This document shows positions 6,401-55,039 of a stretch of DNA of 64,000 bases, one piece after another (the stretch's first letter is position 1; the number at the start of each line of letters is the position of its first letter). The notes under the pieces were generated by a model. It saw only the letters and a list, made by a program, of their open reading frames with translations. It was not told the DNA's origin and ran no database searches. Source of the DNA: a virus (taxonomy: Duplodnaviria > Heunggongvirae > Uroviricota > Caudoviricetes); the IMG/VR virus record IMGVR_UViG_3300021256_000063, positions 1 through 64,000 of that record. One strand, written 5' to 3'. The translations under genes and the position numbers were made by a program.

Positions 6401-9043
6401 TTAATTAACACTTTTAAAACATTCTAAAAATTGATTTGGTGAAATTGTGTAAAGCACTTTAAGTAATAGCGCACGGTTATTATTCATTTTACTTGTAACC
6501 GCTGCCCGTTTCCTTTTTAAAGATGGAGTAATATAAAAAGCACGATCTATTAAGAATGACATTAACCCCTGATATTTTTTTGTTAAACTAATTTCTTTAA
6601 TGTCATTAATTAATTCATCAAAATCATTTCTTAATAATAAAATATCTTCATCAGAATCATCTGCTATATTTTGTTGATACTGTCCCAATTTAAAACTGTA
6701 CTTTTCTATTAACTTTTCTATTTTTTTACTACGCCGCAATGGTAAATCTCTATCATGTTTAATAAAAAAATGATCCATTGGAATATCAGTATCATATGTC
6801 ATAGTAGGATTAATATCAGCATTATACAAATAATTCATAGGACAATTCAACGATGGGTTATAACGTCCTTCTTTAATCTTAGCCGTACTCATTCCAAGAC
6901 GTTTATTATTATATTTTTGAATAGGTTTAAGAAACATGGGATATCCATTTTGTTTAATATTCAAATCTCTGCGTATCCTGTCCGTTTCCTCATTTAAATC
7001 AATATCATAAGCACGTTTGCTAGAATCTATGTATATCTGAGCAAGTACAGCCAGAATACAAACATAATCTTTATATTTTTGATCTGGAAATGAATAAGAA
7101 TAGGAGAGGGCTATTTGTGCCAAGTTACTAGACAATCCAATACCCATCTGACTTGACATTAATTTATTATCTATATATGATAAATCTAGTGCTGTATTTT
7201 TGTAGCGGGTAGTATCTTTTGGAATATTATTCTTCACAGTTGGAAAAGCCGTTTGACAATGTTTAGCATGGCCTACAATCGATAAATGGTTTAATGTTAA
7301 AATTGTGTCAGAATCCTGATCGCTGCCATTATTAGCGTCTTGAAAATCATTTTGCCTCATATTAATAGCAATACAATTCTCACCCAAATAAAAATACTTT
7401 TTCATCCTCCAATCTAAATGATTGTGTAAATACCCCAATGAATTTTGCGAATTAAATGGGCTACGAAATTCTGCTAAATATTCTCCATCTTTAAATCTTT
7501 CGCTATAACACTGAATAGCCAATTCTTCTTGTTCAAAGGTTGGATCACTTTCTGGGTCTTCTCCAACAGCAAATAACAACTCAGCATAAGGAGACCCAAC
7601 AATAACCATATTATCTCCCTCATTAATAATTCGCCCTGTTTTCGCCATTTTAGCATATGTATTAATAATTAATTTCCTACGATCTCGGAAATAACTAGAA
7701 TTAATAAAATCTGGATTGTGTTTAACCAAAGCGATCAATACTTCATAATCATTGGAAAAATTTTGTCCCTTTTTTAAATAGTCAAGAAACGCCTCGTTGT
7801 TTGTTTTTAATTCCTTAATATATTCTTTTGTACATTGGATTACATCTTCCATAATATCTTCAGACATGCAATTTACATGCTGATAACTCATTTTCTGAAC
7901 ATCACCCAACTTAGATTTCTTCGCCGTCTTAACAATTCCAAAATAACTATCATTATCTTCAATAACTCGTTGACACCAATAATCATAATTAATTCTATCA
8001 TTTATAAATTTGCACCATTTCATTGCAGATTCATGGCAAATAATTTTTACGTCTTTAACCAAATGCTCATGACCAAATATATCTGTCAGCTTCCATGTCT
8101 CATAATCAATATCATGATCAGCAGCATAATCTCTAAAAAAACCCTGAATATCTGTGTCAAAACACGCCATTTTACAAAAGTGATTTCTTAAAAGAACAAA
8201 TCCATTCGTTTTAGGAAACTGCGCATGAACAAAGTTATGATCAATTAAACCTTGCCCGTCAAACATTGAATTACCAATTTTAGCATTTTCACGTTTTACT
8301 GCATGAACATGTCCATCATCACCCTTTTCAATGCTTATAATATCTTTAAAACAAAAAGAATCATAATCATCAAGTACTAATATATCATAGGGATTAACCT
8401 TAATCTTCCCAATAATAGTACTAGTTGCCAAAGAAGAATATGCTTCAGCTTCAACCAGAAGAGGATTTTCATATTCATCTAAATCAATCCCCATATATAA
8501 ATATTCTTTAGCTATGTCATACAATTCTTCTCTAATAAAATCAACAGTTCCCTTTTTAGCCTTGCCCGGTGTCCTGAACAACCTCTTATAATGTATTGTC
8601 TGTGGTTCCTGATTTTTACGAGCGGCAGGATAAGTCACATCAACACCCTCGGTATAAACCTTATCCCTTGCTTCAGCCCGATTATATCTAACATACTTGT
8701 CCTGATTTTCTTCAGCTCTCACTAATAACTCATTAAAATATTGTATCTTTTGTGTTTTTTCTTCTTCAGTTAACTTATCATTCTTCTCTGTATCTTTAAT
8801 GCATTTCTTTAAATGCGCCTTTTCTTGTTCATAGCTACGTGTGCCATATTTAAAATCAAGAACAATTACGTCTCTGGTTGATGTATCTTTATATATATCA
8901 AGCCCATGTTTCTTCATGTAATCAAGAAAAAGACTATTACACAACATGGCGTCCGTCATATCAATATGATCACGGACACCAGCATTTTTCTCTAAAAGGC
9001 TTCCGACAACGATGTTTTTAATTTTTATTCCGTATTCACCCAT
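6401..9043 (-). CDS. large hypothetical protein (880 aa), function unknown
   Basis: Long ORF with an AAAGGAGG site. No Walker A motif, no family A or B polymerase motifs, no T7-RNAP motifs and no glycyl-radical motif were recognised. Confidence 0.6.
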   Translation of the reverse strand: MGEYGIKIKNIVVGSLLEKNAGVRDHIDMTDAMLCNSLFLDYMKKHGLDIYKDTSTRDVIVLDFKYGTRSYEQEKAHLKKCIKDTEKNDKLTEEEKTQKIQYFNELLVRAEENQDKYVRYNRAEARDKVYTEGVDVTYPAARKNQEPQTIHYKRLFRTPGKAKKGTVDFIREELYDIAKEYLYMGIDLDEYENPLLVEAEAYSSLATSTIIGKIKVNPYDILVLDDYDSFCFKDIISIEKGDDGHVHAVKRENAKIGNSMFDGQGLIDHNFVHAQFPKTNGFVLLRNHFCKMACFDTDIQGFFRDYAADHDIDYETWKLTDIFGHEHLVKDVKIICHESAMKWCKFINDRINYDYWCQRVIEDNDSYFGIVKTAKKSKLGDVQKMSYQHVNCMSEDIMEDVIQCTKEYIKELKTNNEAFLDYLKKGQNFSNDYEVLIALVKHNPDFINSSYFRDRRKLIINTYAKMAKTGRIINEGDNMVIVGSPYAELLFAVGEDPESDPTFEQEELAIQCYSERFKDGEYLAEFRSPFNSQNSLGYLHNHLDWRMKKYFYLGENCIAINMRQNDFQDANNGSDQDSDTILTLNHLSIVGHAKHCQTAFPTVKNNIPKDTTRYKNTALDLSYIDNKLMSSQMGIGLSSNLAQIALSYSYSFPDQKYKDYVCILAVLAQIYIDSSKRAYDIDLNEETDRIRRDLNIKQNGYPMFLKPIQKYNNKRLGMSTAKIKEGRYNPSLNCPMNYLYNADINPTMTYDTDIPMDHFFIKHDRDLPLRRSKKIEKLIEKYSFKLGQYQQNIADDSDEDILLLRNDFDELINDIKEISLTKKYQGLMSFLIDRAFYITPSLKRKRAAVTSKMNNNRALLLKVLYTISPNQFLECFKSVN

Positions 9044-9063
9044 GCATCTTTGGCCTCCTTTAT

Positions 9064-10281
9064 TTACAACATTTTAAGTTTGTTAAGTTGCGTTTGTAGA
9101 ACAAGCGTAAACAGATAAATTTCATCTTCAGTAACGTTCCTGTCCATACTAATACGAATAGTGCTATTAATCTCTTTATCTGTTAACCCAATTTCCTGCA
9201 ATACCTTACTAGGTTCTTTCACTCCTGCATGGCAAGCACTTCCAGCAGATACTTGACAACCTTCAAAAATATCCAGATTGGTTATTAACTGCTCATTATC
9301 AATTCCATTAAAAGTAACATTGACAATATTCAACAATCCGGTATAAGGGCTATTAATCTTTACGTCATATTTTGTCATTAGGAAATCCAACAAAAGACTT
9401 CTACACCTTTTCAGATTCCTATTATCTTTATCCCTATTTTCGTATGCTTGATCCATAGCCCGACCCATCATAATAATAGAGGGCGCATCTTCAGTGCCTG
9501 ACCGCATTCCTTTTTCCTGACCACCACCATGCAGAAGAGGATTAATTTCAATACCATTTCGCACATACAAGAAACCGACCCCATGAGGCGCACCAAACTT
9601 ATGACCAGACACCGACATCATATCAATACCCATATCTTGTACATCAATCTTCATATGCGTAAAAGCTTGAACTGCATCTACATGTAACACTCCATCATAC
9701 TTGTGTACAATTTTACTAATTGCCTTAATATCATTAATTGATCCAAGTTCATTATTTGCCATCATAATTGATACAAAAATTGGATATTGTTTGACATTTG
9801 GCGTATAACGAATACGCTCCTCTAATGATTCTAAATCAACCATACCGCTATCATGACATTTCACTATATTCACACTATTGGCAATCCCCATTTCATAAAG
9901 CCATACAGCGGGATTAATAACAGAAGGATGCTCAAGACTTGAGACAAAAATTGATGGTGTTAAACGATAATAATCAAACATCTTAGAAGACCCACGAGGA
10001 GCATTCCAATGATGATACTTCTCACAACACCACCCCTTAATAGCAAGATTATTAGCTTCTGTGCCACCAGATGTAAAGATAATCTTATCACCTTCTTGAC
10101 CATTAATACACTTCAAAATATCCTGTCGTACATCCTCAATAGCCTGTCGTGTCTTCATCGACCCCTGAGAGATAGAAGAGGGATTCCACCAGTATTCCTT
10201 ACACAAGGAACCATACTCCTGTATCATTTTTTCATCAGGCTGCATCGTAGCAGCATTATCAAAATAAAGTGACGCTGACAT
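9064..10281 (-). CDS. cysteine desulfurase (NifS/IscS-like class V PLP enzyme)
   Basis: DNAAT..., SGGTEANN, SGHKFGAPHGVGFLYV and the active-site loop SAGSACHAG (compare IscS SSGSACTS). Confidence 0.8.
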   Translation of the reverse strand: MSASLYFDNAATMQPDEKMIQEYGSLCKEYWWNPSSISQGSMKTRQAIEDVRQDILKCINGQEGDKIIFTSGGTEANNLAIKGWCCEKYHHWNAPRGSSKMFDYYRLTPSIFVSSLEHPSVINPAVWLYEMGIANSVNIVKCHDSGMVDLESLEERIRYTPNVKQYPIFVSIMMANNELGSINDIKAISKIVHKYDGVLHVDAVQAFTHMKIDVQDMGIDMMSVSGHKFGAPHGVGFLYVRNGIEINPLLHGGGQEKGMRSGTEDAPSIIMMGRAMDQAYENRDKDNRNLKRCRSLLLDFLMTKYDVKINSPYTGLLNIVNVTFNGIDNEQLITNLDIFEGCQVSAGSACHAGVKEPSKVLQEIGLTDKEINSTIRISMDRNVTEDEIYLFTLVLQTQLNKLKML

Positions 10282-10875
10282 TCAATCACCATGCCTTTCT
10301 GCATATCGCTTCCGAATCTTCTGAACTGTTGGTGTCAAATCTACAACAAACTCTTCCCACTCATCCTTGTCAGGAGACCACCGTCTATACCTACGTGTAA
10401 GCGGGAGAGTATGAGGAAACTGTTCTTTGCTAATCTGCTCCCAATATGCATCAGGGTCTTTATAATTCATCTTTTTAATGCATTCTTTACATACTGGCAT
10501 AATCCAACCGTCAGTACTAGGTACATCAAGTTCACCGCATGCTTCACAAATATAACCACTTATGACAGCATAATTCTCAATAATCTCATGGACTCTGCAC
10601 CTATCAGGACATCCGTTATCATACCAGCGCATTTCACCAAATTTGCTTTTAATCTGTGCAATACTGTATTCATCTGCAAAATTAAACTTTTCTAATTCTT
10701 CTTGAATTTCCTCACAAAGCAATTCCCCGAACGCTTTACGCCAGCCTTCAGACAATGCATCTAATTCAGTCCATGTATAATCATAGTCCTCAACTTTTTC
10801 ACCACTCCATTGATAATGTGGATAAAGCCAAGGATACTTTTTAATCAATGCTTTATTGTACTCAACATTATCCAT
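10282..10875 (-). CDS. Cys-rich hypothetical protein
   Basis: A GGGAGAAAAAG site precedes the internal Met (MDNVEY). Several CxxC-type pairs are present. Confidence 0.5.
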   Translation of the reverse strand: MDNVEYNKALIKKYPWLYPHYQWSGEKVEDYDYTWTELDALSEGWRKAFGELLCEEIQEELEKFNFADEYSIAQIKSKFGEMRWYDNGCPDRCRVHEIIENYAVISGYICEACGELDVPSTDGWIMPVCKECIKKMNYKDPDAYWEQISKEQFPHTLPLTRRYRRWSPDKDEWEEFVVDLTPTVQKIRKRYAERHGD

Positions 10876-11059
10876 TTCTTTTTCTCCCATACAACCCAAG
10901 AATCCACGCTCTGAACATCCCCTCTTCAACATCGTTACACCAATTAAGTCTATAGTCATGATAATACAGCCCAACCTGTTCACCCTTACGTCTTACCTCG
11001 TAATCTCCAGACTGCACACAAAAATCATAACCGTCCAGTTTCGTTTCAAACCAAGTCAT
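10868..11059 (-). CDS. small hypothetical protein
   Basis: 63 aa ORF between two genes. Confidence 0.35.
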   Translation of the reverse strand: MTWFETKLDGYDFCVQSGDYEVRRKGEQVGLYYHDYRLNWCNDVEEGMFRAWILGLYGRKRNG

Positions 11060-11397
11060 TCCTCAACCTCCACAGTGTATAATGGTTTTTTAAAATCATG
11101 TACAGACGTAAAATGTATATCTATATCTAAATATCGATTTGCTACAATTCTATATATCTTGTCTCCATGATGATTATAAGCACAATAATCATCTTGATTA
11201 ACTTCTATCTGTATATCAGGCTCAGCAATAACTTTAGAAGTAAATACCATACCATTCATTTTCAGTTTCAAATAAAATGGCTTATTCTCACTGACATCAA
11301 TAGCACTCATATCAAAATACGAAGTTCCACAATATGGACAAGTATTTAATTCTGTTTTGTATGGTGCCCCGCAATTAGGACAATTTCTCTGATTCAT
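11056..11397 (-). CDS. zinc-ribbon protein
   Basis: N-terminal CPNCG...CPYCG. Confidence 0.5.
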   Translation of the reverse strand: MNQRNCPNCGAPYKTELNTCPYCGTSYFDMSAIDVSENKPFYLKLKMNGMVFTSKVIAEPDIQIEVNQDDYCAYNHHGDKIYRIVANRYLDIDIHFTSVHDFKKPLYTVEVEE

Positions 11398-11406
11398 TTT
11401 TATTTC

Positions 11407-11664
11407 CTACTTAGCAATTAAATTTTTTTGTGGACATTTTTCTATACTCACATCGCAAAAAAGATATCTATGTGAATAACAACCATCAAGATAACTATAA
11501 TTACAATATGCGCATGGACTATTACTTAAAATAATTTTTAACCAAACAAGAGCATCAGGATAACAATAATCCGCACGTCTTAAAGCACTTATACAATCTT
11601 TAAGCTTTGCAGAAGTTTCTTCCCGCAACCTTTTAACCATTTCAGTTTTATCTTTTATTGTCAT
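11407..11664 (-). CDS. small Cys-rich protein
   Basis: 85 aa with 8 Cys. Confidence 0.45.
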   Translation of the reverse strand: MTIKDKTEMVKRLREETSAKLKDCISALRRADYCYPDALVWLKIILSNSPCAYCNYSYLDGCYSHRYLFCDVSIEKCPQKNLIAK

Positions 11665-11680
11665 AATTAATCGACCCTTT

Positions 11681-12592
11681 TCAACTGTTCATTTCACTAA
11701 CCTCTTTTTGAATCATCTGAAACATCTCGTCAACTGTTAATTCTCCAATAGGATAATGAATTTCAGAAAGACTACTTCTTGCAAATGTTCCGCTTACCAA
11801 ATCAATATAAAAAGTAACCGTTCCGTCTTCACCTGCATAATACAGTTCCCACTCTTCATCTGTAAGCTTATCTCTCATATGAAGCTGTTCAAGCGCCAAA
11901 TTATCAAAGGACACGACTTCAAATTTGTCAGCAAGTTCTACAATCCCAGACTCAAGCCATGCAATATTATCCAGAATCATTTGGTTATTATCCTTATAAT
12001 AAGGAAGACCACGACCTTTCTGCTTATATCCCAGAATAAGAATCTTCAAATCATGATCACCCAGAGCATCAATATCCTCAGGATTAATAACCCCAGCAAT
12101 TACATGGATGATAGCATTTGGAAATTCTTTGACGGCTTCAATGAATCCTTCCTGTGTGGGATCAACTAATGAAATCCCAATTCCTTTAATCAGTCCCATC
12201 TTCATAAGAAAACGCACAAACTGCCGACCGTAATCGCTCATAAAATGCTTCTGATTAATGGTGGCATTCACAAACACATTCTGTGCTTTCATGGTATACA
12301 GGAATTCCATCAAATCAGGTGGGGTAGGAAACTGAAGATTGATAGCAATCTCCGTATAAGGATGCATGGTATGCAAGAATCTCCAACTGGTCAAATCACC
12401 ATGCTTACCAGTAGGAGAGCAACCTGCATAACAAAACTCACACCCATTATCACAGCATTGTGAGATTTGTACATCACACGATTCCGCAAACTGGAAGTGA
12501 AAATCATCATCTTCTGTTACATGAATCTTTGTTCCATCATCGTAAATGGTAGTAATTGTATTACCATTCTGATATTGTGCTAACTCTTTCAT
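11681..12592 (-). CDS. radical SAM enzyme
   Basis: CDNGCEFCY (CxxxCxxC-aromatic) near the N-terminus; 303 aa; no SPASM-type extra Cys clusters. Confidence 0.75.
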   Translation of the reverse strand: MKELAQYQNGNTITTIYDDGTKIHVTEDDDFHFQFAESCDVQISQCCDNGCEFCYAGCSPTGKHGDLTSWRFLHTMHPYTEIAINLQFPTPPDLMEFLYTMKAQNVFVNATINQKHFMSDYGRQFVRFLMKMGLIKGIGISLVDPTQEGFIEAVKEFPNAIIHVIAGVINPEDIDALGDHDLKILILGYKQKGRGLPYYKDNNQMILDNIAWLESGIVELADKFEVVSFDNLALEQLHMRDKLTDEEWELYYAGEDGTVTFYIDLVSGTFARSSLSEIHYPIGELTVDEMFQMIQKEVSEMNS

Positions 12593-13626
12593 TTTTTATA
12601 CTCCTTAACCACTGCCCAGTTTGCCTCGGCAAGAAACTTATTAATCCTATCATAATCAGGATTTGCGGGAAGACTTGTATGTTCTTTCCAATATTGTAAC
12701 TTATTTTCTAAATCATCTACAATATCATAGAATTCTGCGACCGGATGATCTTCATCATCAAGATACTTACCATTCCTAATATCCATAAGAAAGTCATGCT
12801 CTTTCTCACGATAAGTAATAATCTCGCCTTTTTCAAGAATATCAAAACACATCAGATAAAGCCGAACCAGATGCATCATGTGCTTACCTAGCTTACCACG
12901 TTCAATTGCTTTACGATTCCTAGCCCCGATTTTTGCATACTCTTTAACAATCGCAAGCATCTCTGACCACATGGACTTATAATCACGAAGCGGATAGTGC
13001 TTCAAATTCACATCCATAAAAATCTCTGTGTCATAATCAGGATTTACTGCTTCATCAATATATAGCTTAATTGCGTCTTCTGGATGTTCAAAAAACTTTG
13101 CGGGGAATGTATATTTAGCATTTTCAATGCTGCGCAAAATAAACTCCTCACGCTTAGATTGCTCCATAGTTCTAGCAGCCCGATTCTCTAAACGTCTAAG
13201 CTGGCTTCCCGCATAACCTCCAAATGAATGGATGGCACGCTTAGAAAGAAACATATCTCTATTATCAATGAGCGCCTGACCGATATCTGTTACATAGAAA
13301 TACTGCCAAGGCTCAAGGCCAAGAATCTCAATTGTATTAGGATTACAATTAGAAAGAAGGTTCACAATCTTTTCAAGAGAATAAATAGTTGTATCAGTTT
13401 CCTCGTTAACCACCTGCTCAAATCCTTTACGGGTCAAAATGTCCTGAGCATTATGAGTAGCTACACCACGAATATCAATATCACTGTCTTCATTGTTAGT
13501 ACCATAGGCATAACTACCACCAAGTCCTAAAAGAACAATATTTCCCACAAGAGGCTCTTTGCCAAGAAAACTATAACGTTCATCAAAAGCCAACATATTA
13601 CCAATATCATCTCTGGTTTTAATCAT
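12589..13626 (-). CDS. Pol-beta superfamily nucleotidyltransferase (KNTase/LinB-like or CD-NTase-like) with a helical C-terminal domain
   Basis: GLGGSYAYGTNNEDSDIDIRGV fits the GS-x9-DxD pattern; 345 aa. Confidence 0.6.
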   Translation of the reverse strand: MIKTRDDIGNMLAFDERYSFLGKEPLVGNIVLLGLGGSYAYGTNNEDSDIDIRGVATHNAQDILTRKGFEQVVNEETDTTIYSLEKIVNLLSNCNPNTIEILGLEPWQYFYVTDIGQALIDNRDMFLSKRAIHSFGGYAGSQLRRLENRAARTMEQSKREEFILRSIENAKYTFPAKFFEHPEDAIKLYIDEAVNPDYDTEIFMDVNLKHYPLRDYKSMWSEMLAIVKEYAKIGARNRKAIERGKLGKHMMHLVRLYLMCFDILEKGEIITYREKEHDFLMDIRNGKYLDDEDHPVAEFYDIVDDLENKLQYWKEHTSLPANPDYDRINKFLAEANWAVVKEYKK

Positions 13627-14118
13627 TTAATCACACCCTGTCTCCAATCCAACGTACTTATTAAAAATAAACTCAACACATGCTTCAGAGTCCCAAAGGT
13701 TCACTATACAATTATCATCACACCAACCGCTACTCAGTTGCTGATGATCAAAATAATCATAGGACTCTTCCCATTTACATTCATCTACTTTAACGCCACG
13801 ACACAAAACGCCATTGTGTTCTGTTACATACTTGCCGAATGCTTCATTAAAATTATTGAAAACATATCCCTCATCTCTGATTTTTGCTTTATCAAAATCA
13901 TAATAAGCATACAACCATGTAACGATATATTTTAATTTTGTTTTCTGATTAAAGAACTGTTCTTCATCCTTGCCAAAATACTGATCCAAAGTAATATGCA
14001 CATAACCGTCTTCATGGATTTTCATGTGGCATTTCTCTAATCCTTTTTTATTGAAACAGAAACTATGCACACTACTGCTATTTGTTTCCCACACACTTAA
14101 CCTAATCTGCTTTCTCAT
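13627..14118 (-). CDS. hypothetical protein, WETNSSS-motif family, paralog 1
   Basis: N-terminal IRLSVWETNSSSVHSF is shared with the next gene. Confidence 0.5.
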   Translation of the reverse strand: MRKQIRLSVWETNSSSVHSFCFNKKGLEKCHMKIHEDGYVHITLDQYFGKDEEQFFNQKTKLKYIVTWLYAYYDFDKAKIRDEGYVFNNFNEAFGKYVTEHNGVLCRGVKVDECKWEESYDYFDHQQLSSGWCDDNCIVNLWDSEACVEFIFNKYVGLETGCD

Positions 14119-14882
14119 GACTTCACCTTCTTCTCATAAGACTTGCTAACAGAATACAAGACCTGAATCGCATCCTTATCTACAAGGCCAGCGTCCATCA
14201 TAGTGCCAAAGATACAAGTCTCATCACCATCTACTACGACCACGATATCCTTACGAATCAAATACTCTTCAATAGTAATTCCATACTTCCTAAGAAACAT
14301 CTGGAACAAGCCCATGGATTGATGATCGATACTACCAAATTTCGGCACTTCCAGATAAATCCCCATCTGCTTACGACCAGACTTACAAACTTCCTTATAA
14401 CGCCCATACTCTTTGGTCTCATCGTAGACCAAATCCTCGTAAGGAACTTCCTCATAAGTCTCGTAATCCTGCTCAACATCATCTGTTACAGTATCACTGT
14501 AAACTCTAAAGAACTCAGATTCCATTGGCATTTCAACCTCATCCACACCAGCCAACTTTTTTAATATCGGCTCAAAGGTGTACATAAACTCATTGCCAGC
14601 CTTAATATAAGTCTTTAAGTTATAGCAGTTTCCAAGCATGGCAGCCATTGCATAAGACAACTTATCCCTAAATGACGTAAGCACCCTGAATTCTCTACCA
14701 AAATCGTTGTCCCAAGAATCCAATCGAAGAATGTTTCCACGCTCCTCGTTCCAATCTTCATCAAGATAGAACTCATCCCTGATCTCTGCCTGAGTCATTG
14801 TCTGACGCTTTTTCATAATTAATAGGCTATGCATGGACGAAGAGTTCGTCTCCCAAGCGCCATTTCTTACCTGAATCTTCAT
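14115..14882 (-). CDS. hypothetical protein, WETNSSS-motif family, paralog 2
   Basis: N-terminal MKIQVRNGAWETNSSSMHSL. Confidence 0.5.
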   Translation of the reverse strand: MKIQVRNGAWETNSSSMHSLLIMKKRQTMTQAEIRDEFYLDEDWNEERGNILRLDSWDNDFGREFRVLTSFRDKLSYAMAAMLGNCYNLKTYIKAGNEFMYTFEPILKKLAGVDEVEMPMESEFFRVYSDTVTDDVEQDYETYEEVPYEDLVYDETKEYGRYKEVCKSGRKQMGIYLEVPKFGSIDHQSMGLFQMFLRKYGITIEEYLIRKDIVVVVDGDETCIFGTMMDAGLVDKDAIQVLYSVSKSYEKKVKS

Positions 14883-15064
14883 AACATATGTCTCCTTTTA
14901 ATCAACCATTCATATTTCATCCATCTAACTACAATTACATCACGACAGAGATAAAAGCGTGGTCGGATAGACCACAATATCCTGTCAAGTTCTTTGTACA
15001 ATCTGTTCATACAATCACCTCACATTTAATTATATTCTATCAAACCACGCTTATTTGTCAAGCT

Positions 15065-15504: not shown

Positions 15505-16467
15505 TTAATCACCTTCCTCTGTTGTAAGATTACGTGTGTCTACAATAGGAGTGGAACCACCCTGAATCTGAGGAACAGTACCATTCCACTTTTCAATTTT
15601 CTCTTTCTCAATAAGTTCTGGAGTCAACGAACCAGCAACTTTCTTGTTGGCCTCTGCCTCAGCTTCAGCAGCGATTCTCTTAGCTTCTGCATCACCCTCA
15701 GCTTTAATCTTTGCCTTTTCTGCATTAATCTTGGCTGTCTCTTTATCTTTCTCGGCATTAATAAGCGCAACTTCCTTTTCTTTTTCAGCATCTACGGAAG
15801 CTGTCTGCTTATTAATCTTGGCGACTTCCAAATCCTGCTGAGCCTGAATCTTCTTCTGAATTGCCTTATCTGTTTCCTCGTCTACATTGACATCAATCAG
15901 TGACGCACTCTCGATGATAATCCCATAAGGCTCAAATTTCTCTTTCAGATATTCAGTAAGAGCAATATTAACCGCACCACGCTGTTCACCGATGATCTCT
16001 GTCATATAATATCTGGGCGTGACTTCCTTAGTCCAAGACATTACATTTGGTCTAATAAATGTACGGAGTACTTCCTTACCAGAACGACCCTTGAACCTTG
16101 TAAAGATTTCAGCGACCCGTTCAGGATCATACCTGTAAGTAAATGTCTCATCAACCCTCAGACCTTTACCATCCTTCGAAGGAGCCTCAAAGCTATCATC
16201 GCCCTCAGAATCCCCATCGTCTCCAGCAGTAAGATAAGACTGCTCAATACCAATAGAATACAGTGTAATCTGTTTAGTAGGTGAAACAACATGCCATCCC
16301 TGAGACAAAACCTCGTCATCAATACCACCATTCATCTTATACACGACACCTACATAGCCCGCAGGAATCCTCTCTGTACATTTGAAACAACAAATAACCA
16401 CAAGGGCAATTACAATAGCCGAAAAAACGCCACCAACAATACCTTTCATCTCTTTACTCCTTTTCAT
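15505..16467 (-). CDS. SPFH/band-7 (stomatin/prohibitin-like) membrane protein
   Basis: N-terminal transmembrane segment, an SPFH core (GYVGVVYK...IIIESASLIDVN) and a C-terminal A/E/K coiled coil. Confidence 0.75.
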   Translation of the reverse strand: MKRSKEMKGIVGGVFSAIVIALVVICCFKCTERIPAGYVGVVYKMNGGIDDEVLSQGWHVVSPTKQITLYSIGIEQSYLTAGDDGDSEGDDSFEAPSKDGKGLRVDETFTYRYDPERVAEIFTRFKGRSGKEVLRTFIRPNVMSWTKEVTPRYYMTEIIGEQRGAVNIALTEYLKEKFEPYGIIIESASLIDVNVDEETDKAIQKKIQAQQDLEVAKINKQTASVDAEKEKEVALINAEKDKETAKINAEKAKIKAEGDAEAKRIAAEAEAEANKKVAGSLTPELIEKEKIEKWNGTVPQIQGGSTPIVDTRNLTTEEGD

Positions 16468-17757: not shown

Positions 17758-18372
17758 TTAAATGTCCTCGTTAATAATGTTCATCTGACAAGATTTCATA
17801 GTCATTAATGCTGCTCTATGAAGTTCTGGAGTAGTACCAGCGCAACACGATGCATCAATAGTGATTTCAGCTTCAGGGAATGCTTGACGAATTGCGAATG
17901 CGTTAGAGACCACACAGATATCTGTACAAACACCTATGAATTCAAATTCAAGGTCTTCTCCCTTATAATCAAGAGGAACATACATATCCAAAAATGAATT
18001 CAAAAGATTAACCACCGTTCTCCAAACATTCCCCTCAATTGCGAAATTTTCTTTAACAATAGTATTATATCCTTCTTTTCCTTTAATCCATGGATGACGT
18101 CCAGTCGCATGAACAGTATCTAAAATATCATTCACGATATTCCACCCTCTATCACTTTGGCAATGTGGAATTGGTAAATAACGTCCTTCTCTTGTTTGCG
18201 AATACTCATCTTCGTCATGCATATCCATCGTAAAAATTAAACGGTCATAATCTTTAACCTTAATCTTCTCAACAACCTTTGGCACAATCACCTGTGCTTC
18301 TGGAGTACCAAGGATGCCAGTGATAAAATCGTTTTGCATATCAATTACCATTAGAATTTTCGTTTTGTTCAT
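17758..18372 (-). CDS. isochorismatase-family cysteine hydrolase, nicotinamidase PncA-like
   Basis: VIDMQNDF at the N-terminus and the catalytic Cys context GVCTDICVVSNA. Confidence 0.7.
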   Translation of the reverse strand: MNKTKILMVIDMQNDFITGILGTPEAQVIVPKVVEKIKVKDYDRLIFTMDMHDEDEYSQTREGRYLPIPHCQSDRGWNIVNDILDTVHATGRHPWIKGKEGYNTIVKENFAIEGNVWRTVVNLLNSFLDMYVPLDYKGEDLEFEFIGVCTDICVVSNAFAIRQAFPEAEITIDASCCAGTTPELHRAALMTMKSCQMNIINEDI

Positions 18373-20707: not shown

Positions 20708-20933
20708 TCTCCATAATCTTAGCAGCTACATTAAGTCTTAGTCCCGCAAAGGGTGGAAGAGTACTACCCGAACTGTTCTGTGCAAAAGTCATAGGATTTG
20801 CACGCCATCTTTTAATCATCTCTTCTTTACCCAACTCAATACGGTACTGTTTATTAAATAGCTTCTTAAAAAAATACTTAATCTTATTAATCAATCTCTT
20901 CCTATATACTTCTATTTTCATTTTTTCCACCAT
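20676..20933 (-). CDS. hypothetical protein
   Basis: 85 aa ORF. Confidence 0.35.
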   Translation of the reverse strand: MVEKMKIEVYRKRLINKIKYFFKKLFNKQYRIELGKEEMIKRWRANPMTFAQNSSGSTLPPFAGLRLNVAAKIMEIGDWRSKYGR

Positions 20934-21415
20934 TTTTTATAATATTCCAATGTCAAAAACATTATCAATGTATCTATACTTACAAATTTCTTATTAAGTT
21001 TGTTCTCAATCCAAGGATGAAGCGGTTCAACCAAATCCTGCTTTTCAAAAAATCCAATAATTTCTTTCCCTAGCAACCATGCCAACATAATTTCCTGACA
21101 TGTACCTACAGATGTTTTTGCTTTGTTTAAATTCACCACAAAATAATCGCAATTAATAATTCCACAAATATCATATTCATGAGCCAACTGCTGAACTTCA
21201 TCACTTTCGTCCTCAGCATTAAAAACAGTTGGATCAAAGAATTGATAATGACCCATAAAATGTTTCTCTAGAACTTCTCGCCATTCTGTCTGTTCTTTTT
21301 GCGATAATCCTGTCATAGCACCAGACAAAAAAATAGTAGGGCAATTTGTTTCTACCTTATATTTTTGAACCAAATCTTCTAATCTATCATTCCTCATTCG
21401 CTTCCTCTTTCTCAA
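20918..21415 (-). CDS. nucleoside 2-deoxyribosyltransferase-like (NDT/Rcl-like) protein
   Basis: PTIFLSGAMTG resembles the YLAG(P) motif of the NDT/Rcl fold; 165 aa. Confidence 0.5.
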   Translation of the reverse strand: MRKRKRMRNDRLEDLVQKYKVETNCPTIFLSGAMTGLSQKEQTEWREVLEKHFMGHYQFFDPTVFNAEDESDEVQQLAHEYDICGIINCDYFVVNLNKAKTSVGTCQEIMLAWLLGKEIIGFFEKQDLVEPLHPWIENKLNKKFVSIDTLIMFLTLEYYKKWWKK

Positions 21416-35789: not shown

Positions 35790-36692
35790 ATGGCAAAAAA
35801 GAACAACAATCTTAATCCCAATCAGTTTATCCCGAGTTGCGCTTCCTACGAAGAGGGTCTCGACCTCGCCGCTTATGCGGCGGCTGTTAACGCCGAGTGG
35901 GACGACACTTTCTCTATCCTGCTCGAAGAGGTGCAGGAACTGGGTGGCAACATCACCCCTGTCTCGGACGATGGCGAGTTCTTCCTTGTCCTGTCCGGTC
36001 TGGACAAAAAGTCCCCTGAGTTCAAGGCGGCTCAGTATACCTGCGGCCTGCTCGAAGACCTGCACAACTCCATCTCCCGGATGTACAAGGACGCCAAGCG
36101 TTCTATCGCCACTATGACCGGGACTGTCCCATCGGATATGTTGGCGGCTCGTGGTGTGTATCGCCGCTCCCGTGACCTGTACGCCGGGGGGTCTTATCAG
36201 GTAGAGTGCAAGAAGACCGAGAAGAACCCTGAGGGTCTCAAGACCGTGACCGCCAAGCGTGGTCTGGCGACCGTCTATGCTGAGTGGTTGTCTGCTATCA
36301 GTGCGGACAAGGTGACCGAGAAACAGGCGGCTAAACTGGCGGCTCGTCTCATGGAAGTGACCAACTTTGGTCGGGTTAATAAGATCGCCGGGTCTCACAA
36401 GTTCAAAGAACTCGGTGCCCGTGGGGTCGCTCAGGACGCCGTTAACGGTCTGCTCGGATACCTGTACAATGGCGCTTATGGCTACCAGTTGGACGACAAG
36501 GGGAACCCTGTCAAAGACGCCAATGGTCAGTTCGTCCAGACCGTCTATGGCGGCAAGTGGGAACTGAAGAAGAGTTTCAACCAGACCAGATTCTGCGTCC
36601 TGACCAAAAACGCCAAGGGTGAGGAAGTCAACGAAGAGTGCGGCGGCACCCTGATTCCTGAGGGCTATGAGATTGTCCGCAAACAGGCGTAA
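35790..36692 (+). CDS. hypothetical protein (GC-rich island gene 1)
   Basis: GGAAAGGATGG then ATG at 35790; high-GC codon usage; 300 aa. Confidence 0.6.
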   Translation: MAKKNNNLNPNQFIPSCASYEEGLDLAAYAAAVNAEWDDTFSILLEEVQELGGNITPVSDDGEFFLVLSGLDKKSPEFKAAQYTCGLLEDLHNSISRMYKDAKRSIATMTGTVPSDMLAARGVYRRSRDLYAGGSYQVECKKTEKNPEGLKTVTAKRGLATVYAEWLSAISADKVTEKQAAKLAARLMEVTNFGRVNKIAGSHKFKELGARGVAQDAVNGLLGYLYNGAYGYQLDDKGNPVKDANGQFVQTVYGGKWELKKSFNQTRFCVLTKNAKGEEVNEECGGTLIPEGYEIVRKQA

Positions 36693-36811
36693 ATTAAATC
36701 CCGGATTCCGACTCCCGGATTGATACCAGATAGGGCACGCAAGGACTCTACATCCTTACGTGCCCGATTGTGGTAACAATCATCATATCACTATCACGAA
36801 AGGGGGGCACT

Positions 36812-37081
36812 ATGTCCAAATTCATTGTCAAGTTTGAAATCCCGTCTCGCCGTACCTACGGCATTACCTGCCAGTCTGAACCGCTCCCTCAGTGGGCAAT
36901 GGCAGATTTCATCCAGTCCCTTACAGACTCCAACTATACCCTGCTGGGGGTGGAGACCGTGGAAGAATTGCCGCCTGAGGCGGTCTATGGCGATGAGGAC
37001 GAGGAAGAACTCTGTGCCGAGGACATTGTCGAAATGGACTGGGACGAGGAGCCAGAAGAAGAAATCATGGAAGAAGAGTAA
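36812..37081 (+). CDS. small acidic protein (GC-rich island)
   Basis: AAAGGGGGG site; C-terminal DEDEEELCAEDIVEMDWDEEPEEEIMEEE. Confidence 0.55.
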   Translation: MSKFIVKFEIPSRRTYGITCQSEPLPQWAMADFIQSLTDSNYTLLGVETVEELPPEAVYGDEDEEELCAEDIVEMDWDEEPEEEIMEEE

Positions 37082-37195
37082 GGGGGATCTATAACCATGG
37101 CAACAGGCACAATTTATCTCAGTGACATTCTGGATTCGTACTCCGAGTATGCCCAATACGGGGGCTACGAGGACGCCGAGGAATGAAATACCACC

Positions 37196-37278
37196 ACCAC
37201 GAGGGGCGCAGTATAGAGCATAGGGCACACGCTCATTCCCTGTACTGCGATTCACGGGTTCGACTCCCGTGACGTGGT
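37196..37278 (+). ncRNA. T-arm and acceptor-like tRNA-fragment-like element
   Basis: ACGGG-TTCGACT-CCCGT T-arm followed by GACGTGG. The 5' partner CCACGAG pairs at 5 of 7 positions. The interior folds as one long hairpin, not a cloverleaf. Confidence 0.3.
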
Positions 37279-37375
37279 CTCTGTCCCGACTGGGACTATC
37301 AGCAACAAGCACGCAATCACTCCGACTGCGTGCTATTTTTATGCCCGATAATTTTCGGGGGAAAGGGGTAACACT

Positions 37376-38164
37376 ATGGCTATGAATCCTGTTTTGGCGC
37401 TCATTAACTGCGATTCCGAGGACAAATTCGTCCGTGATATCGCTGAGGCATATTTCCAGAACCCTATCCATGTCCGCGATCTGTTGACAGAGGACTGCAT
37501 CGAGGCGTGTCTGGATGACTATATGCGCAATCAGGACGTGATTGCAGACATCCGTGACCAGCAGTCCGATTGCAACAACGAGGCCAAGCTGTCCGCAAAA
37601 CAGCGCCGTGCAAGACGCCGTGTGCAGAACCATGCACACAAGCAGTCTGACCGTGCCCACGGGAAAAAGCGTCCGATGTCCCGAAAGGACGCAGTCCGTG
37701 CGAACGATGACCAGGCACAGATGTCCCGTCCCATCGGGATGTGGTCTCTGTATCCAAATGGAGCGTGTCACTTCAGACCGTTCCAGCGGTCAAACAGGCA
37801 CAATAACCATCTGTCTTATGGACAGGAAGTGTTGAACATGCTCAAAGTAGCGTCAAAGCGGGTGACCGCCGAAGACGTCAACTGGGCAAAAGCAGTTGTC
37901 CAGAATGCTGCCGAAGAGGGTCAGGAATGGGCGATCCATGACTACCTCGCAGAACAGCTGGACTACTGTCCGACTCCCGAAAAAGAGGTTGCACTCTTGA
38001 CAGTAATCCTGCTGTCATGGTGGACGGAACAGTTTGACGGATATGTCAGCTGTGGTCTGCCCGCTACAGAAGACTGCTTTAACAGTATCAGTCACAGCAA
38101 CTGGTACAAGTGGGCGGTTAAGCAGGAAGTGCCTCTTATGGTAGAGGCATGGAAACAGGCTTAA
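37376..38164 (+). CDS. hypothetical protein (GC-rich island)
   Basis: GGGGGAAAGGGG site; 262 aa. Confidence 0.55.
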   Translation: MAMNPVLALINCDSEDKFVRDIAEAYFQNPIHVRDLLTEDCIEACLDDYMRNQDVIADIRDQQSDCNNEAKLSAKQRRARRRVQNHAHKQSDRAHGKKRPMSRKDAVRANDDQAQMSRPIGMWSLYPNGACHFRPFQRSNRHNNHLSYGQEVLNMLKVASKRVTAEDVNWAKAVVQNAAEEGQEWAIHDYLAEQLDYCPTPEKEVALLTVILLSWWTEQFDGYVSCGLPATEDCFNSISHSNWYKWAVKQEVPLMVEAWKQA

Positions 38165-45834: not shown

Positions 45835-46602
45835 ATGGCAATGATTATTAACCGTAGCAACGACCTGAAAATTCCTGCATACAATCTGTATCTCGATCCT
45901 GAAACACAGATTCACATCTCTGACGGAAATGATAAAATGGGTAAGGGTGTATATAGTATCAGTCTTCTGCCCAGTTCTGGTTATCTCCGTTTCAGGGGAA
46001 CAGGAAAATTCTGTAAAGGAAAAATGTTGACAAACATCAAGGGAACTTGCGGTGGTGTGTGCGAAAAATGTAAATGTATGAAAGAGTGCTATGCTATCAA
46101 GGTACTCATGCGTAAGCACAATACATGTACAAAGGCTTGGGGCGAGAACACACTCCTTGCAAGGGAAGACAGAAATAGATTCTTCTCTGAACTGGACAGA
46201 TTTATGTGGTTGAATCTTGTCCCTGTATTTCGTTGGCATGTAAGTGGAGAAATTATGGATGAAGAATATTTCTTCAATATGATTCAGCTTGCAGAAAAGC
46301 ATCCAGAAACACAGTTTTATGTCTATACAAAGGCATATGAAATTGTAGAGACTGTAGGAAAAGACATGGAAGGATTTAAGGAGAACTTCCATGTTCTGGT
46401 TTCTATCTGGCATAAGAATTATAGTAATCCTTTTGGACTGCCAGAATTCATTTATGATGACGGAACAGAACCGGAACTTGAAACTGTTCCTCATTGTCCC
46501 GCCGTCAACAAAGATGGAAAGGAAACTGGTGTGACATGTGCAACATGTAGAAAATGCTGGCATGTTAAAAATGGTGACAAGATCGCAGTCTACGCACACT
46601 GA
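45835..46602 (+). CDS. Cys-rich hypothetical protein
   Basis: 255 aa; CGGVCEKCKCMKEC...CATCRKC. Confidence 0.5.
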   Translation: MAMIINRSNDLKIPAYNLYLDPETQIHISDGNDKMGKGVYSISLLPSSGYLRFRGTGKFCKGKMLTNIKGTCGGVCEKCKCMKECYAIKVLMRKHNTCTKAWGENTLLAREDRNRFFSELDRFMWLNLVPVFRWHVSGEIMDEEYFFNMIQLAEKHPETQFYVYTKAYEIVETVGKDMEGFKENFHVLVSIWHKNYSNPFGLPEFIYDDGTEPELETVPHCPAVNKDGKETGVTCATCRKCWHVKNGDKIAVYAH

Positions 46603-54487: not shown

Positions 54488-55039
54488 ATGATTGGACTGA
54501 TCATTATTCTTGTTTTTCCGTTTATATATTTCTATACACAAATGAATAATTTTAATGAAAAGACGGGGGCTATTAGAAAAGCGATTGAAGAGGGAAAAGA
54601 GACTTATATTGATACAGTCGATATGTGTGAACGTTGGACAGTAACTGGCGAAAAAGTATATCATTGCAAATGGGTATATACCAGCAAGAAAACGGAAGAT
54701 GCTATTGAAGGTGACAGTGTTCTAATGGGACTTAATACGCATAAGGTATACAGAAACTATTCAAAAGAAAAATATATAGCAGATATTCAATGGCGAATGG
54801 ATCATGGGATATGTTGGTGTTGGGAAAGACATGCGTTTAATGAAAAAACAAAAGAAGATTATCTTCTCCATTATCATATGAAAGACAAATATTTTTATCG
54901 ACTTGGCTGGGACAACGCAACTCATAATTATTGTATTACATATCATAACACTGATAAAAAAGAAATTATTTCTTATGAAAAGTATAAAGAATATGGCGGT
55001 TTTGATATAAAAGATAGAACAAGGGGGTACAGAAGATGA
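54488..55039 (+). CDS. hypothetical protein with an N-terminal TM segment
   Basis: GAAAGGAG site; 183 aa. Confidence 0.5.
   Translation: MIGLIIILVFPFIYFYTQMNNFNEKTGAIRKAIEEGKETYIDTVDMCERWTVTGEKVYHCKWVYTSKKTEDAIEGDSVLMGLNTHKVYRNYSKEKYIADIQWRMDHGICWCWERHAFNEKTKEDYLLHYHMKDKYFYRLGWDNATHNYCITYHNTDKKEIISYEKYKEYGGFDIKDRTRGYRR

Follow-up and report, generated by a model that had tools for sequence, protein, structure and literature searches.

The gene array at positions 9064-14882 of the window, a 64-kb stretch of phage DNA analysed here, contains only one evolutionarily obligatory unit, a radical SAM enzyme together with one or more TNSSS-domain proteins. This pair is an undescribed two-part system that is found in hundreds of phages. 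The cysteine desulfurase and the nucleotidyltransferase encoded in the same array are lineage-specific additions and not part of the core. A sequence-only reading of this DNA had proposed a self-contained, sulfur-dependent pathway made up of all these genes, which their distribution does not support: of 29 radical SAM clusters, the desulfurase is found in 2, the nucleotidyltransferase in 3, the zinc-ribbon protein in 1 and the 233-aa Cys-rich protein in 3. The suggestion that the module may be novel holds for the radical SAM-TNSSS pair, which is new.

Organization of the gene array

The array lies on the minus strand as a single tightly packed block, and all of the open reading frames described previously were recovered at the same positions (Table 1). 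Adjacent genes overlap by 4 nt at 14115-14118, where the start of the mid-class TNSSS gene runs into the stop of its upstream paralog, and again at 12589-12592 and 11056-11059, while the remaining gaps are 0-20 nt. The hairpin in the leader, before the first gene, is the only terminator-like one within the array, and the next are downstream of it at 6161-6143 and 5879-5850. The leader had no match in Rfam; its short open reading frame spans 14879-15010 and is preceded by the ribosome-binding site GAGGTG. The array is best explained as a single co-directional operon, early or middle, of a phage of ~140-160 kb whose host is probably Gram-positive.

Table 1. Features of the array and its leader
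Feature	Position	Strand	Length	Remarks
Upstream leader	14883..15064	-		sigma-70-like promoter 15061-15034, hairpin 14976-14958, 43-aa ORF
TNSSS-domain protein, long class	14115..14882	-	255 aa	motifs MKIQVRNGAWETNSSSMHS, FGR, SIDHQS, VDGDE
TNSSS-domain protein, mid class	13627..14118	-	163 aa	motifs MRKQIRLSVWETNSSSVHS, YFG, FDHQQ; C-terminal TGCD
RlaP-family Pol-beta nucleotidyltransferase	12589..13626	-	345 aa	Pfam PF10127
Divergent radical SAM enzyme	11681..12592	-	303 aa	CxxxCxxC at C47/C51/C54
Small Cys-rich protein	11407..11664	-	85 aa	variable accessory gene
Zinc-ribbon protein	11056..11397	-	113 aa	Zn_ribbon_3, 1.2e-6; variable accessory
Small ORF	10868..11059	-	63 aa	kept only in close relatives
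Cys-rich protein	10282..10890	-	~197-202 aa	CxxC pairs; variable accessory
Class I (IscS/NifS-type) cysteine desulfurase	9064..10281	-	405 aa	Pfam Aminotran_5

Radical SAM and TNSSS proteins form a conserved pair

To compare the array with its relatives we used 122 related loci, which comprise 29 radical SAM clusters. Neighbour clustering of the loci seeded with the enzyme found the radical SAM gene in 32 of 32 and an adjacent TNSSS gene in 31, the lone exception being a cut contig. In the reciprocal test, seeded with the TNSSS motif, the enzyme was present in 77 of 80 loci at a median gap of 24 nt. TNSSS proteins accompany the enzyme in all 29 clusters, and in Ma-LMM01, the Lak megaphages and all IMG/VR and genome loci examined the radical SAM homolog adjoins TNSSS open reading frames on the same strand. 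One radical SAM enzyme is accompanied by between one and five TNSSS paralogs. The two are also fused into one polypeptide in approximately ten independent protein clusters, and in both orders, with TNSSS preceding radical SAM in P0252, P0391/P0392/P0394, P0397/P0398, P0400, P0403, P0406 and P0407 and following it in P0393.

The radical SAM enzyme

The sequence-only reading correctly placed a radical SAM enzyme in the cluster. Its CxxxCxxC motif is invariant in 18 close and 13 diverse homologs, and its predicted fold is the partial (beta/alpha)6 TIM barrel of the radical SAM superfamily. The window protein has no match to the Pfam radical SAM family PF04055 at E < 0.1; a precomputed match to this family is found in more distant fused relatives. 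An N-terminal beta-rich extension of ~40 aa is kept in every TNSSS-linked enzyme, and in the RM378 homolog both this extension and the TNSSS neighbour are missing. Conserved cysteines are confined to residues 39-58, leaving none for a SPASM or twitch auxiliary cluster. The nearest structural neighbours are mostly radical SAM enzymes that modify peptides or proteins (SuiB, anSME, EpeE/YydG, PqqE, ChlB and SkfB). A viperin-like modification had been proposed, but the enzyme matches no viperin/pVip, QueE or MiaB-like model in Pfam, NCBIfam or PADLOC, the UPF0004 and TRAM domains of MiaB included, nor do the MoaA models match it; the QueE and MiaB-like models likewise have no match among the other window proteins.

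The TNSSS proteins

The two uncharacterised paralogs noted previously for their WETNSSS sequence are indeed related, as BLASTP aligns their first 40 residues at 1e-7 with MxxQ[IV]R...WETNSSSxHS in common. The N-terminal consensus of the family is MKxQ[IV]Rxxx[FW]ETNSSSxH[ST], within which the segment R-x4-[E/A]-T-N-S-S-S-x-H is invariant, even though paralogs elsewhere are only ~22-29% identical. In all related loci examined the motif lies at a constant distance from the start codon, so its conservation is far beyond chance. In the full-length paralogs the remaining, more variable body has the conserved polar motifs FG[RWK], DH and G[DNC][DEN], and the full-length classes retain the DH and GxD motifs.

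TNSSS proteins are 100-290 aa in length and have a confident predicted fold (AF2, pLDDT 82). The sole low-confidence part of the monomer model is the N-terminal motif region, with pLDDT < 50 at residues 1-14, which in such a model would suit a docking segment and a modified substrate segment equally well. None of the TNSSS sequences inspected contains the sulfatase motif (C/S)xPxR, and the glycyl-radical motif RVxG[FWY] is likewise lacking in all. A RiPP biosynthetic system was considered and rejected, on the grounds of the size and confident fold of these partners and of a Pfam search in which no array protein matched an RRE or PqqD domain.

The cysteine desulfurase

By sequence the 9064-10281 protein is a genuine class I IscS/NifS-type desulfurase, as had been proposed from its SAGSAC loop. 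It matches Aminotran_5 (PF00266) at 6.7e-60, and contains the catalytic Cys loop 'VSAGSACHAG' and the PLP lysine in 'SGHK'; both 'SGHK' and 'SAGSAC' align at corresponding positions with the best PDB match, A. fulgidus IscS2 (7.7e-62). The protein falls below every equivalog cut-off, scoring 298 against 530 bits for TIGR03402 (NifS), 253 against 480 for TIGR03235 and 242 against 643 for TIGR02006. Given these low scores and the absence of the cognate partners (NifU/IscU; DndCDE; SspBCD), assignment as a NifS, IscS, DndA or SspA ortholog was rejected. Profile searches also confirmed the earlier statement that no Dnd or 7-deazaguanine signature is present, and the 64-kb window encodes neither a PP-loop sulfurtransferase nor any other recognisable acceptor of sulfur.

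The desulfurase is absent from 27 of the 29 clusters and is therefore not required for the core reaction. Eight loci of the window lineage have it at 36-95% identity, 0-2.3 kb downstream of the radical SAM gene. A second lineage, independent of the first (L052/L053; 33-34% identity), also has it next to the pair, beside an RNA ligase, and this recurrence makes it plausible that the desulfurase has a supporting part in supplying sulfur or Fe-S clusters.

Small accessory genes

The zinc-ribbon and Cys-rich small proteins are present as described (11056-11397, 11407-11664 and 10282-10983), but these genes are variable filler. The zinc-ribbon gene occurs in 10 of the 122 loci, all within one radical SAM cluster. 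Among close relatives the 85-aa protein is found only in the window and L006, and its only family match is a weak one to the N-terminus of EF-Ts. The largest Cys-rich open reading frame spans 10282-10983 (233 aa), but relatives align only from residue 33-38, so the true start is probably M32 or M37. This protein has no match in Pfam or PHROG and is missing in L008, L009 and L010.

The nucleotidyltransferase and its RNA-repair context

The 345-aa nucleotidyltransferase had been described with a GS-x9-DxD motif, and CD-NTase and KNTase models had been suggested for checking it. The gene and the family motif stand, the Pol-beta signature hG[GS]...DxD being present as 'GGSYAYGTNNEDSDID', but this reads GGS-x10-DID, a spacing of x10 and not x9. 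Its profile matches place it in the RlaP RNA-repair family (PF10127, 2.7e-22; 80.1 bits, gathering cut-off 23) and not among the CD-NTases or KNTases, and it also matches phrog_388 at 6e-54. In vitro, RlaP enzymes from Pseudomonas extend damaged RNA 3' ends (3'-OH) by 1-2 NMPs (PMC12776372). The gene separates the TNSSS genes from the radical SAM gene as an insert specific to this lineage; it is absent in L006 and lies 3-8 kb away in L009, L010, L017, L022 and L028.

An RNA-repair or RNA-quality-control neighbour of the pair occurs in approximately 9-10 of the 29 clusters, the types being RtcB, RNA ligase, CCA-adding enzyme, P-loop kinases with or without HD, DHH phosphoesterases and TROVE-like proteins. 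RtcB is found 240 nt downstream in L014 (1.6e-64), RlaP and a CCA-adding enzyme directly upstream in L022 and L028, the latter also with DHH, and an RNA ligase (6e-25) two genes upstream in L053. An HD+AAA_33 protein lies 18 nt upstream in L044 with an RNA_ligase match nearby, RNase HII overlaps the fused gene in L041 with RlaP nearby, and a TROVE-like DUF2828 protein is near the pair in four clusters. Searches of the 64-kb window with RtcB and a few other queries found no RtcB or RNA ligase, and ~80-100 kb of the genome lies outside it. Large phages quite often carry RNA-repair genes, which makes this enrichment only suggestive. Approximately two thirds of the lineages have no recognisable RNA-repair gene within 7-10 kb of the pair, and instead have DNA methylases, dUTPase, DNA polymerase, SHMT or dCMP deaminase as neighbours, so that the common theme could be general nucleic-acid metabolism.

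Proposed mechanism and alternatives

The reading we tentatively prefer, at a little less than an even chance, is a two-subunit radical enzyme whose target is RNA, probably tRNA, and which receives sulfur or an Fe-S cluster from the desulfurase. From its CxxxCxxC motif and predicted fold, the radical SAM enzyme would bind a [4Fe-4S] cluster and cleave SAM to give a 5'-deoxyadenosyl radical. Strict adjacency and the repeated fusions in both orders suggest that it acts in a physical complex with TNSSS proteins, whose invariant N-terminal segment may dock at, or help form, the radical SAM active site, while the variable body would provide substrate binding or a second catalytic step. RNA is the likely substrate, probably tRNA that has been damaged or repaired, since genes for RNA healing and sealing repeatedly surround the pair. 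Here the operon has gained the RlaP gene, for a putative RNA 3'-end nucleotidyltransferase, whose translation would be coupled to that of the radical SAM gene. The desulfurase, added in this lineage, would most likely give persulfide sulfur to build or repair the Fe-S cluster of the enzyme, and is less likely to be the sulfur donor of the reaction.

It is also conceivable, although rather unlikely, that the radical SAM enzyme is an activase whose substrate is the TNSSS loop, where a serine might be oxidised, epimerised or cross-linked, or a cofactor generated, to activate the paralogous enzymes. anSME activates sulfatases in this manner, and glycyl-radical activases their partners. The peptide- and protein-modifying structural neighbours, the service of one enzyme to 1-5 paralogs with only a short invariant motif in common, and the low confidence of that motif alone in the AF2 model are all consistent with an activase. 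However, the auxiliary-cluster cysteines and the sulfatase and glycyl-radical motifs are absent, the partners are folded proteins rather than peptides, and fusion of enzyme to substrate in both orientations would be unusual for such systems. Alternatively, the target of the pair could be phage DNA or a free nucleotide, modified by a viperin-, MoaA- or BlsE-like reaction on a nucleotide and then a hydrolase-like step; the neighbouring RNA-repair genes would in that case reflect no more than the general clustering of phage nucleic-acid genes. This we regard as improbable: the neighbours named above, together with adenylosuccinate synthetase, and a nucleoside 2-deoxyribosyltransferase in the window (20918-21415) fit such a pathway, but no single nucleotide-metabolism family accounts for more than 2 of the 149 neighbours sampled, RNA-repair genes are more frequent as immediate neighbours, and the pVip, QueE and MoaA models do not match.

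More improbable still, in our view, is a single sulfur pathway made up of the desulfurase, the radical SAM enzyme, the nucleotidyltransferase and the Cys-rich proteins, with thiolation or hypermodification of DNA, tRNA or a nucleotide as its outcome. Tight packing in one operon, the position of the desulfurase in the eight loci and its recurrence in an independent lineage argue for this, and in Firmicutes a class I desulfurase typically serves one dedicated acceptor next to it. Yet the desulfurase is missing from nearly all clusters, the nucleotidyltransferase from 26 of 29 and the small Cys-rich genes from nearly all; no PP-loop ATPase, DndC/D/E, SspB-D, ThiI, MnmA or TtcA was found, nor a MiaB-type second cluster or TRAM domain, and the radical SAM enzymes known to insert sulfur differ from this one, which has only one cluster motif.

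More broadly, the pair might be a new radical system for phage RNA repair or counter-defence, operating by modification of the TNSSS loop or by direct chemistry on tRNA, an idea that we hold to be unlikely. Were the loop modified, the enzyme would install a protein-derived cofactor or modification in it, defining a new class of radical-SAM-activated enzymes. Were tRNA the target, the two-subunit complex would itself act on damaged tRNA by radical chemistry and might, for instance, protect a repaired junction from host anticodon nucleases; where a phage desulfurase is present, it would give the sulfur.

Comparison with known systems

Among the closest known systems are anSME/AtsB with their sulfatase substrates and the RiPP radical SAM maturases (SuiB, PqqE/PqqD, SkfB and EpeE/YydG). 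The latter act on leader-core peptides within biosynthetic clusters that include a transporter and a protease, whereas the pair described here has folded 100-290-aa partners, no RRE, PqqD or SPASM domain, and phage nucleic-acid genes around it. Viperins and pVips differ in that the pair is phage-encoded and not located in a defence island, as well as in the missing pVip match, and to our knowledge viperins have no TNSSS partner.

The phage desulfurase has the same fold, PLP lysine and Cys loop as the dedicated desulfurase-acceptor pairs (NifS-NifU, YrvO-MnmA, NifZ-ThiI, DndA-DndC and SspA), with strong generic matches to NifS, DndA, SspA and IscS models. Unlike them it lacks a NifU/IscU scaffold, a PP-loop enzyme and a Dnd/Ssp partner, although as in those pairs it is encoded beside a candidate client, here the radical SAM enzyme.

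In the RNA repair cassettes (RtcB-RlaP-RtcA; Pnkp/Hen1; T4 Pnk/Rnl with NrdC.11) we know of no radical SAM component within the literature reached. Most pair loci differ from these cassettes in having no recognisable ligase nearby, with none seen in the 64-kb window. As in the cassettes, an RlaP member is present here, and in several lineages the pair adjoins genes of RNA repair or quality control (RtcB, RNA ligase, CCA-adding enzyme and the other types listed above). By analogy with Hen1, the pair could be a modifying enzyme coupled to repair.

Pairing of the radical SAM enzyme with TNSSS proteins

From deposited phages, IMG/VR, GTDB genomes and metagenome contigs we gathered 122 loci with homologs of the window's radical SAM enzyme, which form 29 clusters at ≥60% identity. 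Homologs in deposited phages include those of Lak megaphages (45% identity) and Microcystis phage Ma-LMM01 (33%). In every complete locus the enzyme gene is adjoined on the same strand by one to five ORFs for TNSSS proteins, paralogs that open with MKxQ[IV]Rxxx[FW]ETNSSSxH[ST]. When the neighbours in 32 non-redundant loci were clustered all-against-all, the enzyme was present in 32/32 and the TNSSS family in 31/32, the single negative locus being a truncated contig; the third commonest family was found in only 10/32. The reciprocal search, by peptide motif alone, returned 80 loci. The enzyme is present in 77 of these, with a median spacing of 24 nt, and of the three loci that lack it two are cut contigs. 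The two proteins are also fused in about ten independent clusters that share 25–35% identity with each other. Most fusions have the TNSSS domain first; protein P0393 has the enzyme first and then a short-class TNSSS domain, and P0294 has two TNSSS units in tandem. The distant RM378 radical SAM homolog has neither an N-terminal extension nor a TNSSS neighbour. Strict co-occurrence in both search directions, the fusions and the RM378 homolog together establish that the radical SAM enzyme and the TNSSS proteins form a functional, and probably physical, partnership.

TNSSS proteins fall into long (about 240–290 aa), mid (about 160–195 aa) and short (about 100–140 aa) classes. Residues R6, T12, N13 and S14–S16 are invariant and H18 is nearly so; distant fusions have Ala in place of E11. 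In addition, the full-length classes retain FG[RWK], DH and G[DNC][DEN] motifs, and the short paralogs retain the N-terminal motif only. As one full-length copy suffices in Ma-LMM01, the enzyme and a single full-length TNSSS protein make up the minimal system. Searches of Pfam, PHROGs, NCBIfam, PADLOC and PDB sequences, including one with a profile of diverse members, gave no match to the family. By-eye comparison of the motif with the PP-loop (SGGxDS), flavodoxin phosphate loop, acetate-kinase/ASKHA PHOSPHATE-1, DEDD ExoI, PIN/NYN, Toprim, alkaline-phosphatase-superfamily and archease motifs gave no fit, and we claim none of these for TNSSS because motif order or predicted fold disagrees.

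Metagenome protein P0389 (649 aa), a homolog of the radical SAM enzyme, is interrupted by an intein, with Hint, LAGLIDADG and Intein_splicing domains. In two Clostridia/Absconditabacterales-binned contigs, L019 (8942–9943) and L021 (11690–12643), a second, unrelated radical SAM-like gene is found immediately downstream of the pair or about 3 kb from it. The only other CxxxCxxC string in a sizeable ORF of the window belongs to a GP88-family protein (PF17338, 6e-18).

Organization of the operon and the window

The window is part of a phage genome, with all genes on the minus strand from position 1 to about 34 kb. Among its genes are those for PhoH, a GH25/CW_7 endolysin, Sipho_Gp157 and a GIY-YIG homing endonuclease. 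DNA-level similarity to known or deposited phages is essentially nil, with no close relative. The interval 9064–14882 is a tightly packed minus-strand array in which genes overlap by 4 nt at start and stop or are separated by gaps of ≤20 nt. A leader upstream of the first TNSSS gene contains a strong promoter-like site with a near-consensus extended -10 (TTGACA-16-TG-TAGAAT), and it encodes a 43-aa ORF that has a strong ribosome-binding site and overlaps the start of the first TNSSS gene. The sole terminator-like hairpin within the array, GC-rich with a T-rich tail, is also in the leader, 3' of the promoter and before the first gene. An Rfam search gave no match in or near the operon, leader included. 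The tight packing, the minus-strand order and the placement of the leader promoter and hairpin thus bear out the array, with all its listed genes, that the sequence-only reading had described.

Positions of the features discussed, in window coordinates
Feature	Position	Strand	Transcription order
WETNSSS protein, 255 aa	14115-14882	-	1
WETNSSS protein, 163 aa	13627-14118	-	2
Nucleotidyltransferase, 345 aa	12589-13626	-	3
Radical SAM enzyme, 303 aa	11681-12592	-	4
Cys-rich protein, 85 aa	11407-11664	-	5
Zinc-ribbon protein, 113 aa	11056-11397	-	6
ORF, 63 aa	10868-11059	-	7
Cys-rich protein	10282 to about 10890	-	8
Cysteine desulfurase, 405 aa	9064-10281	-	9
880-aa gene	6401-9043	-	
Promoter-like site	15061-15034		
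Operon leader	14883-15064	-	
Terminator-like hairpin in leader	14976-14958		
Next terminator-like hairpins downstream of array	6161-6143, 5879-5850		
SPFH/Band-7 protein	15505-16467	-	
Isochorismatase-family protein	17758-18372	-	
GC-rich island	36001-38000		
GP88-family protein	45835-46602	+	
Tyrosine-recombinase-type genes	55036-56082, 59339-60259	+	
DUF2828 + DUF7788 + vWA protein, 517 aa	61234-62787	+	
tRNA calls (ARAGORN)	60785-60870, 63060-63134, 63750-63837		

The gene directly downstream of the desulfurase encodes an 880-aa protein (phrog_8308, function unknown) with a DQDSD (DxDxD-like) motif and no match in Pfam or PDB sequences. In loci L008 and L009 its alignment is broken between residues 573 and 574 by about 0.9–1.1 kb of inserted DNA, the pattern to be expected if an important enzyme harboured an intron, intein or homing element. 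Its conservation with the pair is confined to the wider lineage of the window (17 loci, 2 clusters). In 23 loci (3 clusters) homologs of the isochorismatase-family protein are encoded no more than about 8 kb from the pair. Just past the strand switch at about 34.5 kb is an island of 54% GC (about 36% elsewhere), with overlapping long ORFs on both strands that have no Pfam match, and with no tandem repeats. The two tyrosine-recombinase-type genes, one a Phage_integrase and the other with an MrpR N-terminal core-binding domain, stand in a genome otherwise resembling that of a large virulent-type phage.

The desulfurase and other accessory genes

The desulfurase is, as had been proposed, a genuine class I enzyme, matching Aminotran_5 (6.7e-60) and A. 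fulgidus IscS2 (7.7e-62) and carrying the SGHK PLP lysine and the SAGSAC catalytic loop. It is an ordinary member of that class with no subgroup assigned, scoring far under all NifS, IscS and DndA equivalog cut-offs, and its PADLOC matches to SspA and DndA are generic to the fold. Dnd/Ssp phosphorothioation was rejected, the desulfurase being the only matching component. The nucleotidyltransferase is an ordinary RlaP (PF10127, 80 bits against a cut-off of 23; phrog_388, 6e-54). Members of this RNA-repair family extend the 3'-OH of damaged RNA by one or two NMPs and are required to restore aminoacylation of heavily damaged tRNA (PMC12776372). Phage RlaP is predicted from comparative genomics to put back nucleotides that host RNases have removed (PMC7824862).

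Neither gene is core, and nor are those for the SPFH, zinc-ribbon, Cys-rich 233-aa and 85-aa proteins. The desulfurase is found at 15 loci (2/29 clusters), RlaP at 16 (3/29), the SPFH protein at 9 (2/29), the zinc-ribbon protein at 10 (1/29), the Cys-rich 233-aa protein at 10 (3/29) and the 85-aa protein at 3 (1/29). Locus L006, from the window's own lineage, has extra TNSSS paralogs in place of RlaP, and at L009, L010 and L017 the four small genes that separate the radical SAM enzyme from the desulfurase are absent, and the desulfurase directly follows the enzyme. No PP-loop sulfurtransferase was found on the coding strands of the 64-kb window. With so few clusters holding these genes and no such sulfurtransferase, the self-contained sulfur pathway of the sequence-only reading is unsupported as stated, and an integrated thiolation pathway is a less likely account of the operon. 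The desulfurase link to the pair is itself not negligible, because the gene recurs near the pair, at 33–34% identity, in the independent lineage L052/L053; in L053 the genes run from an HD protein through the desulfurase, an intervening gene, an RNA ligase and a further intervening gene to three TNSSS genes and the radical SAM gene.

RNA-repair genes near the pair

Genes for RNA healing, sealing or quality control are repeated immediate neighbours of the pair, in about 9–10 of the 29 clusters. RlaP sits within the operon of the window; RtcB lies 240 nt downstream in L014–L016; RlaP and a CCA-adding enzyme are directly upstream in L022 and L028, the latter also with a DHH/DHHA1 protein; and an RNA ligase is near the pair in L053. 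An HD+AAA_33 protein is found 18 nt upstream in L044, with an RNA_ligase match about 6 kb off, and in the jumbo phage locus L041 RNase HII overlaps the fused gene, with RlaP about 5 kb off. AAA_33/KTI12-like kinases and TROVE-like DUF2828-vWA proteins occur near the pair in several clusters. In the window, tblastn found no RtcB, CCA-adding enzyme or DHH protein.

The window's own DUF2828 protein lies between three tRNA calls, of which tRNA-Pro alone clears the gathering score of Rfam; those for "Gln" and "Thr" are 86–88 nt long. We take DUF2828 to be TROVE/Ro60-like, and the protein and its flanking tRNA-like genes could form a module for RNA quality control akin to Ro/Y-RNA. In 4 other clusters homologs of the protein are encoded no more than about 7 kb from the pair. 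The SPFH/Band-7 protein (PF01145, 2e-25) is encoded two genes upstream of the TNSSS genes, and L026, an independent locus, also has it near the pair. In RNA repair a scaffold role has been proposed for Band-7 modules.

An RNA link is the best-supported lead for the pair. It is not proven, because in the other lineages a mixed set of DNA and nucleotide genes surrounds the pair; modification of a nucleotide or of DNA, to which such neighbours might point, is the less likely reading.

Proposed mechanism

Gene content, motifs, predicted folds, and co-occurrence and fusion statistics form the basis of the following model. The radical-generating subunit and the TNSSS proteins would assemble into a complex, in which the invariant N-terminal segment of the latter may dock at the active site. 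The full-length paralogs could bind the substrate or carry out a second step, which may require a metal. RNA or tRNA is the probable substrate, in the setting of repair that follows attack by host nucleases, and in the two lineages that have it the desulfurase may aid Fe-S cluster assembly or donate sulfur. The main rival is an activase model, in which the radical SAM enzyme acts on the TNSSS proteins themselves; the computational evidence is compatible with both. RNA repair is thought to comprise healing, sealing and nucleotide addition. If the pair acts there, a radical step would be added to this pathway, with a bearing on phage escape from tRNA-targeting defences.

Distribution and relation to known systems

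The TNSSS family comprises at least 1,575 clusters at 50% identity (E ≤1e-3), and a search for the radical SAM family returned 2,835 proteins (E ≤0.001) from a database clustered at 90% identity. Both occur in phages of Firmicutes, Bacteroidota (including Lak megaphages) and cyanobacteria (the cultivable Ma-LMM01), in jumbo phages and in at least one apparent bacterial chromosome. The last is L038, a 174-kb contig (GCA_964551225.1) whose 8001–9761 encodes the fused TNSSS-radical SAM protein P0397, with the variant motif ETSSSS. Genes for DUF7005, LRR and VWA_4 proteins flank it, and the surroundings (two-component system, Trk, Na/H exchanger, MCP) look bacterial-chromosomal; the system is therefore not restricted to phages. 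The pair is of considerable interest for its wide spread, its strong genomic signal and the experimental hosts at hand. Ma-LMM01 and the isolate genome of Eubacterium plexicaudatum ASF492, which carries the pair (L028), offer entry points for experiment.

We found no domain model, name or paper for either family, no paper in a literature search for "ETNSSS", and nothing relevant on Ma-LMM01 and radical SAM. The libraries and texts queried contain no description of the radical SAM-TNSSS pairing, of the TNSSS family or of its apparent fold. The enzyme shares membership of the radical SAM superfamily and falls outside the SPASM, viperin, QueE and MiaB groups; an anSME identity was likewise rejected on membership. 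A radical SAM enzyme with a dedicated partner is a known kind of arrangement. Strictly conserved enzyme-partner pairs with an invariant motif and natural fusions have been an earlier route to new radical SAM chemistry, and the present pair, with its strict conservation, invariant seven-residue motif and natural fusions, shows such a signature and could be similarly informative.
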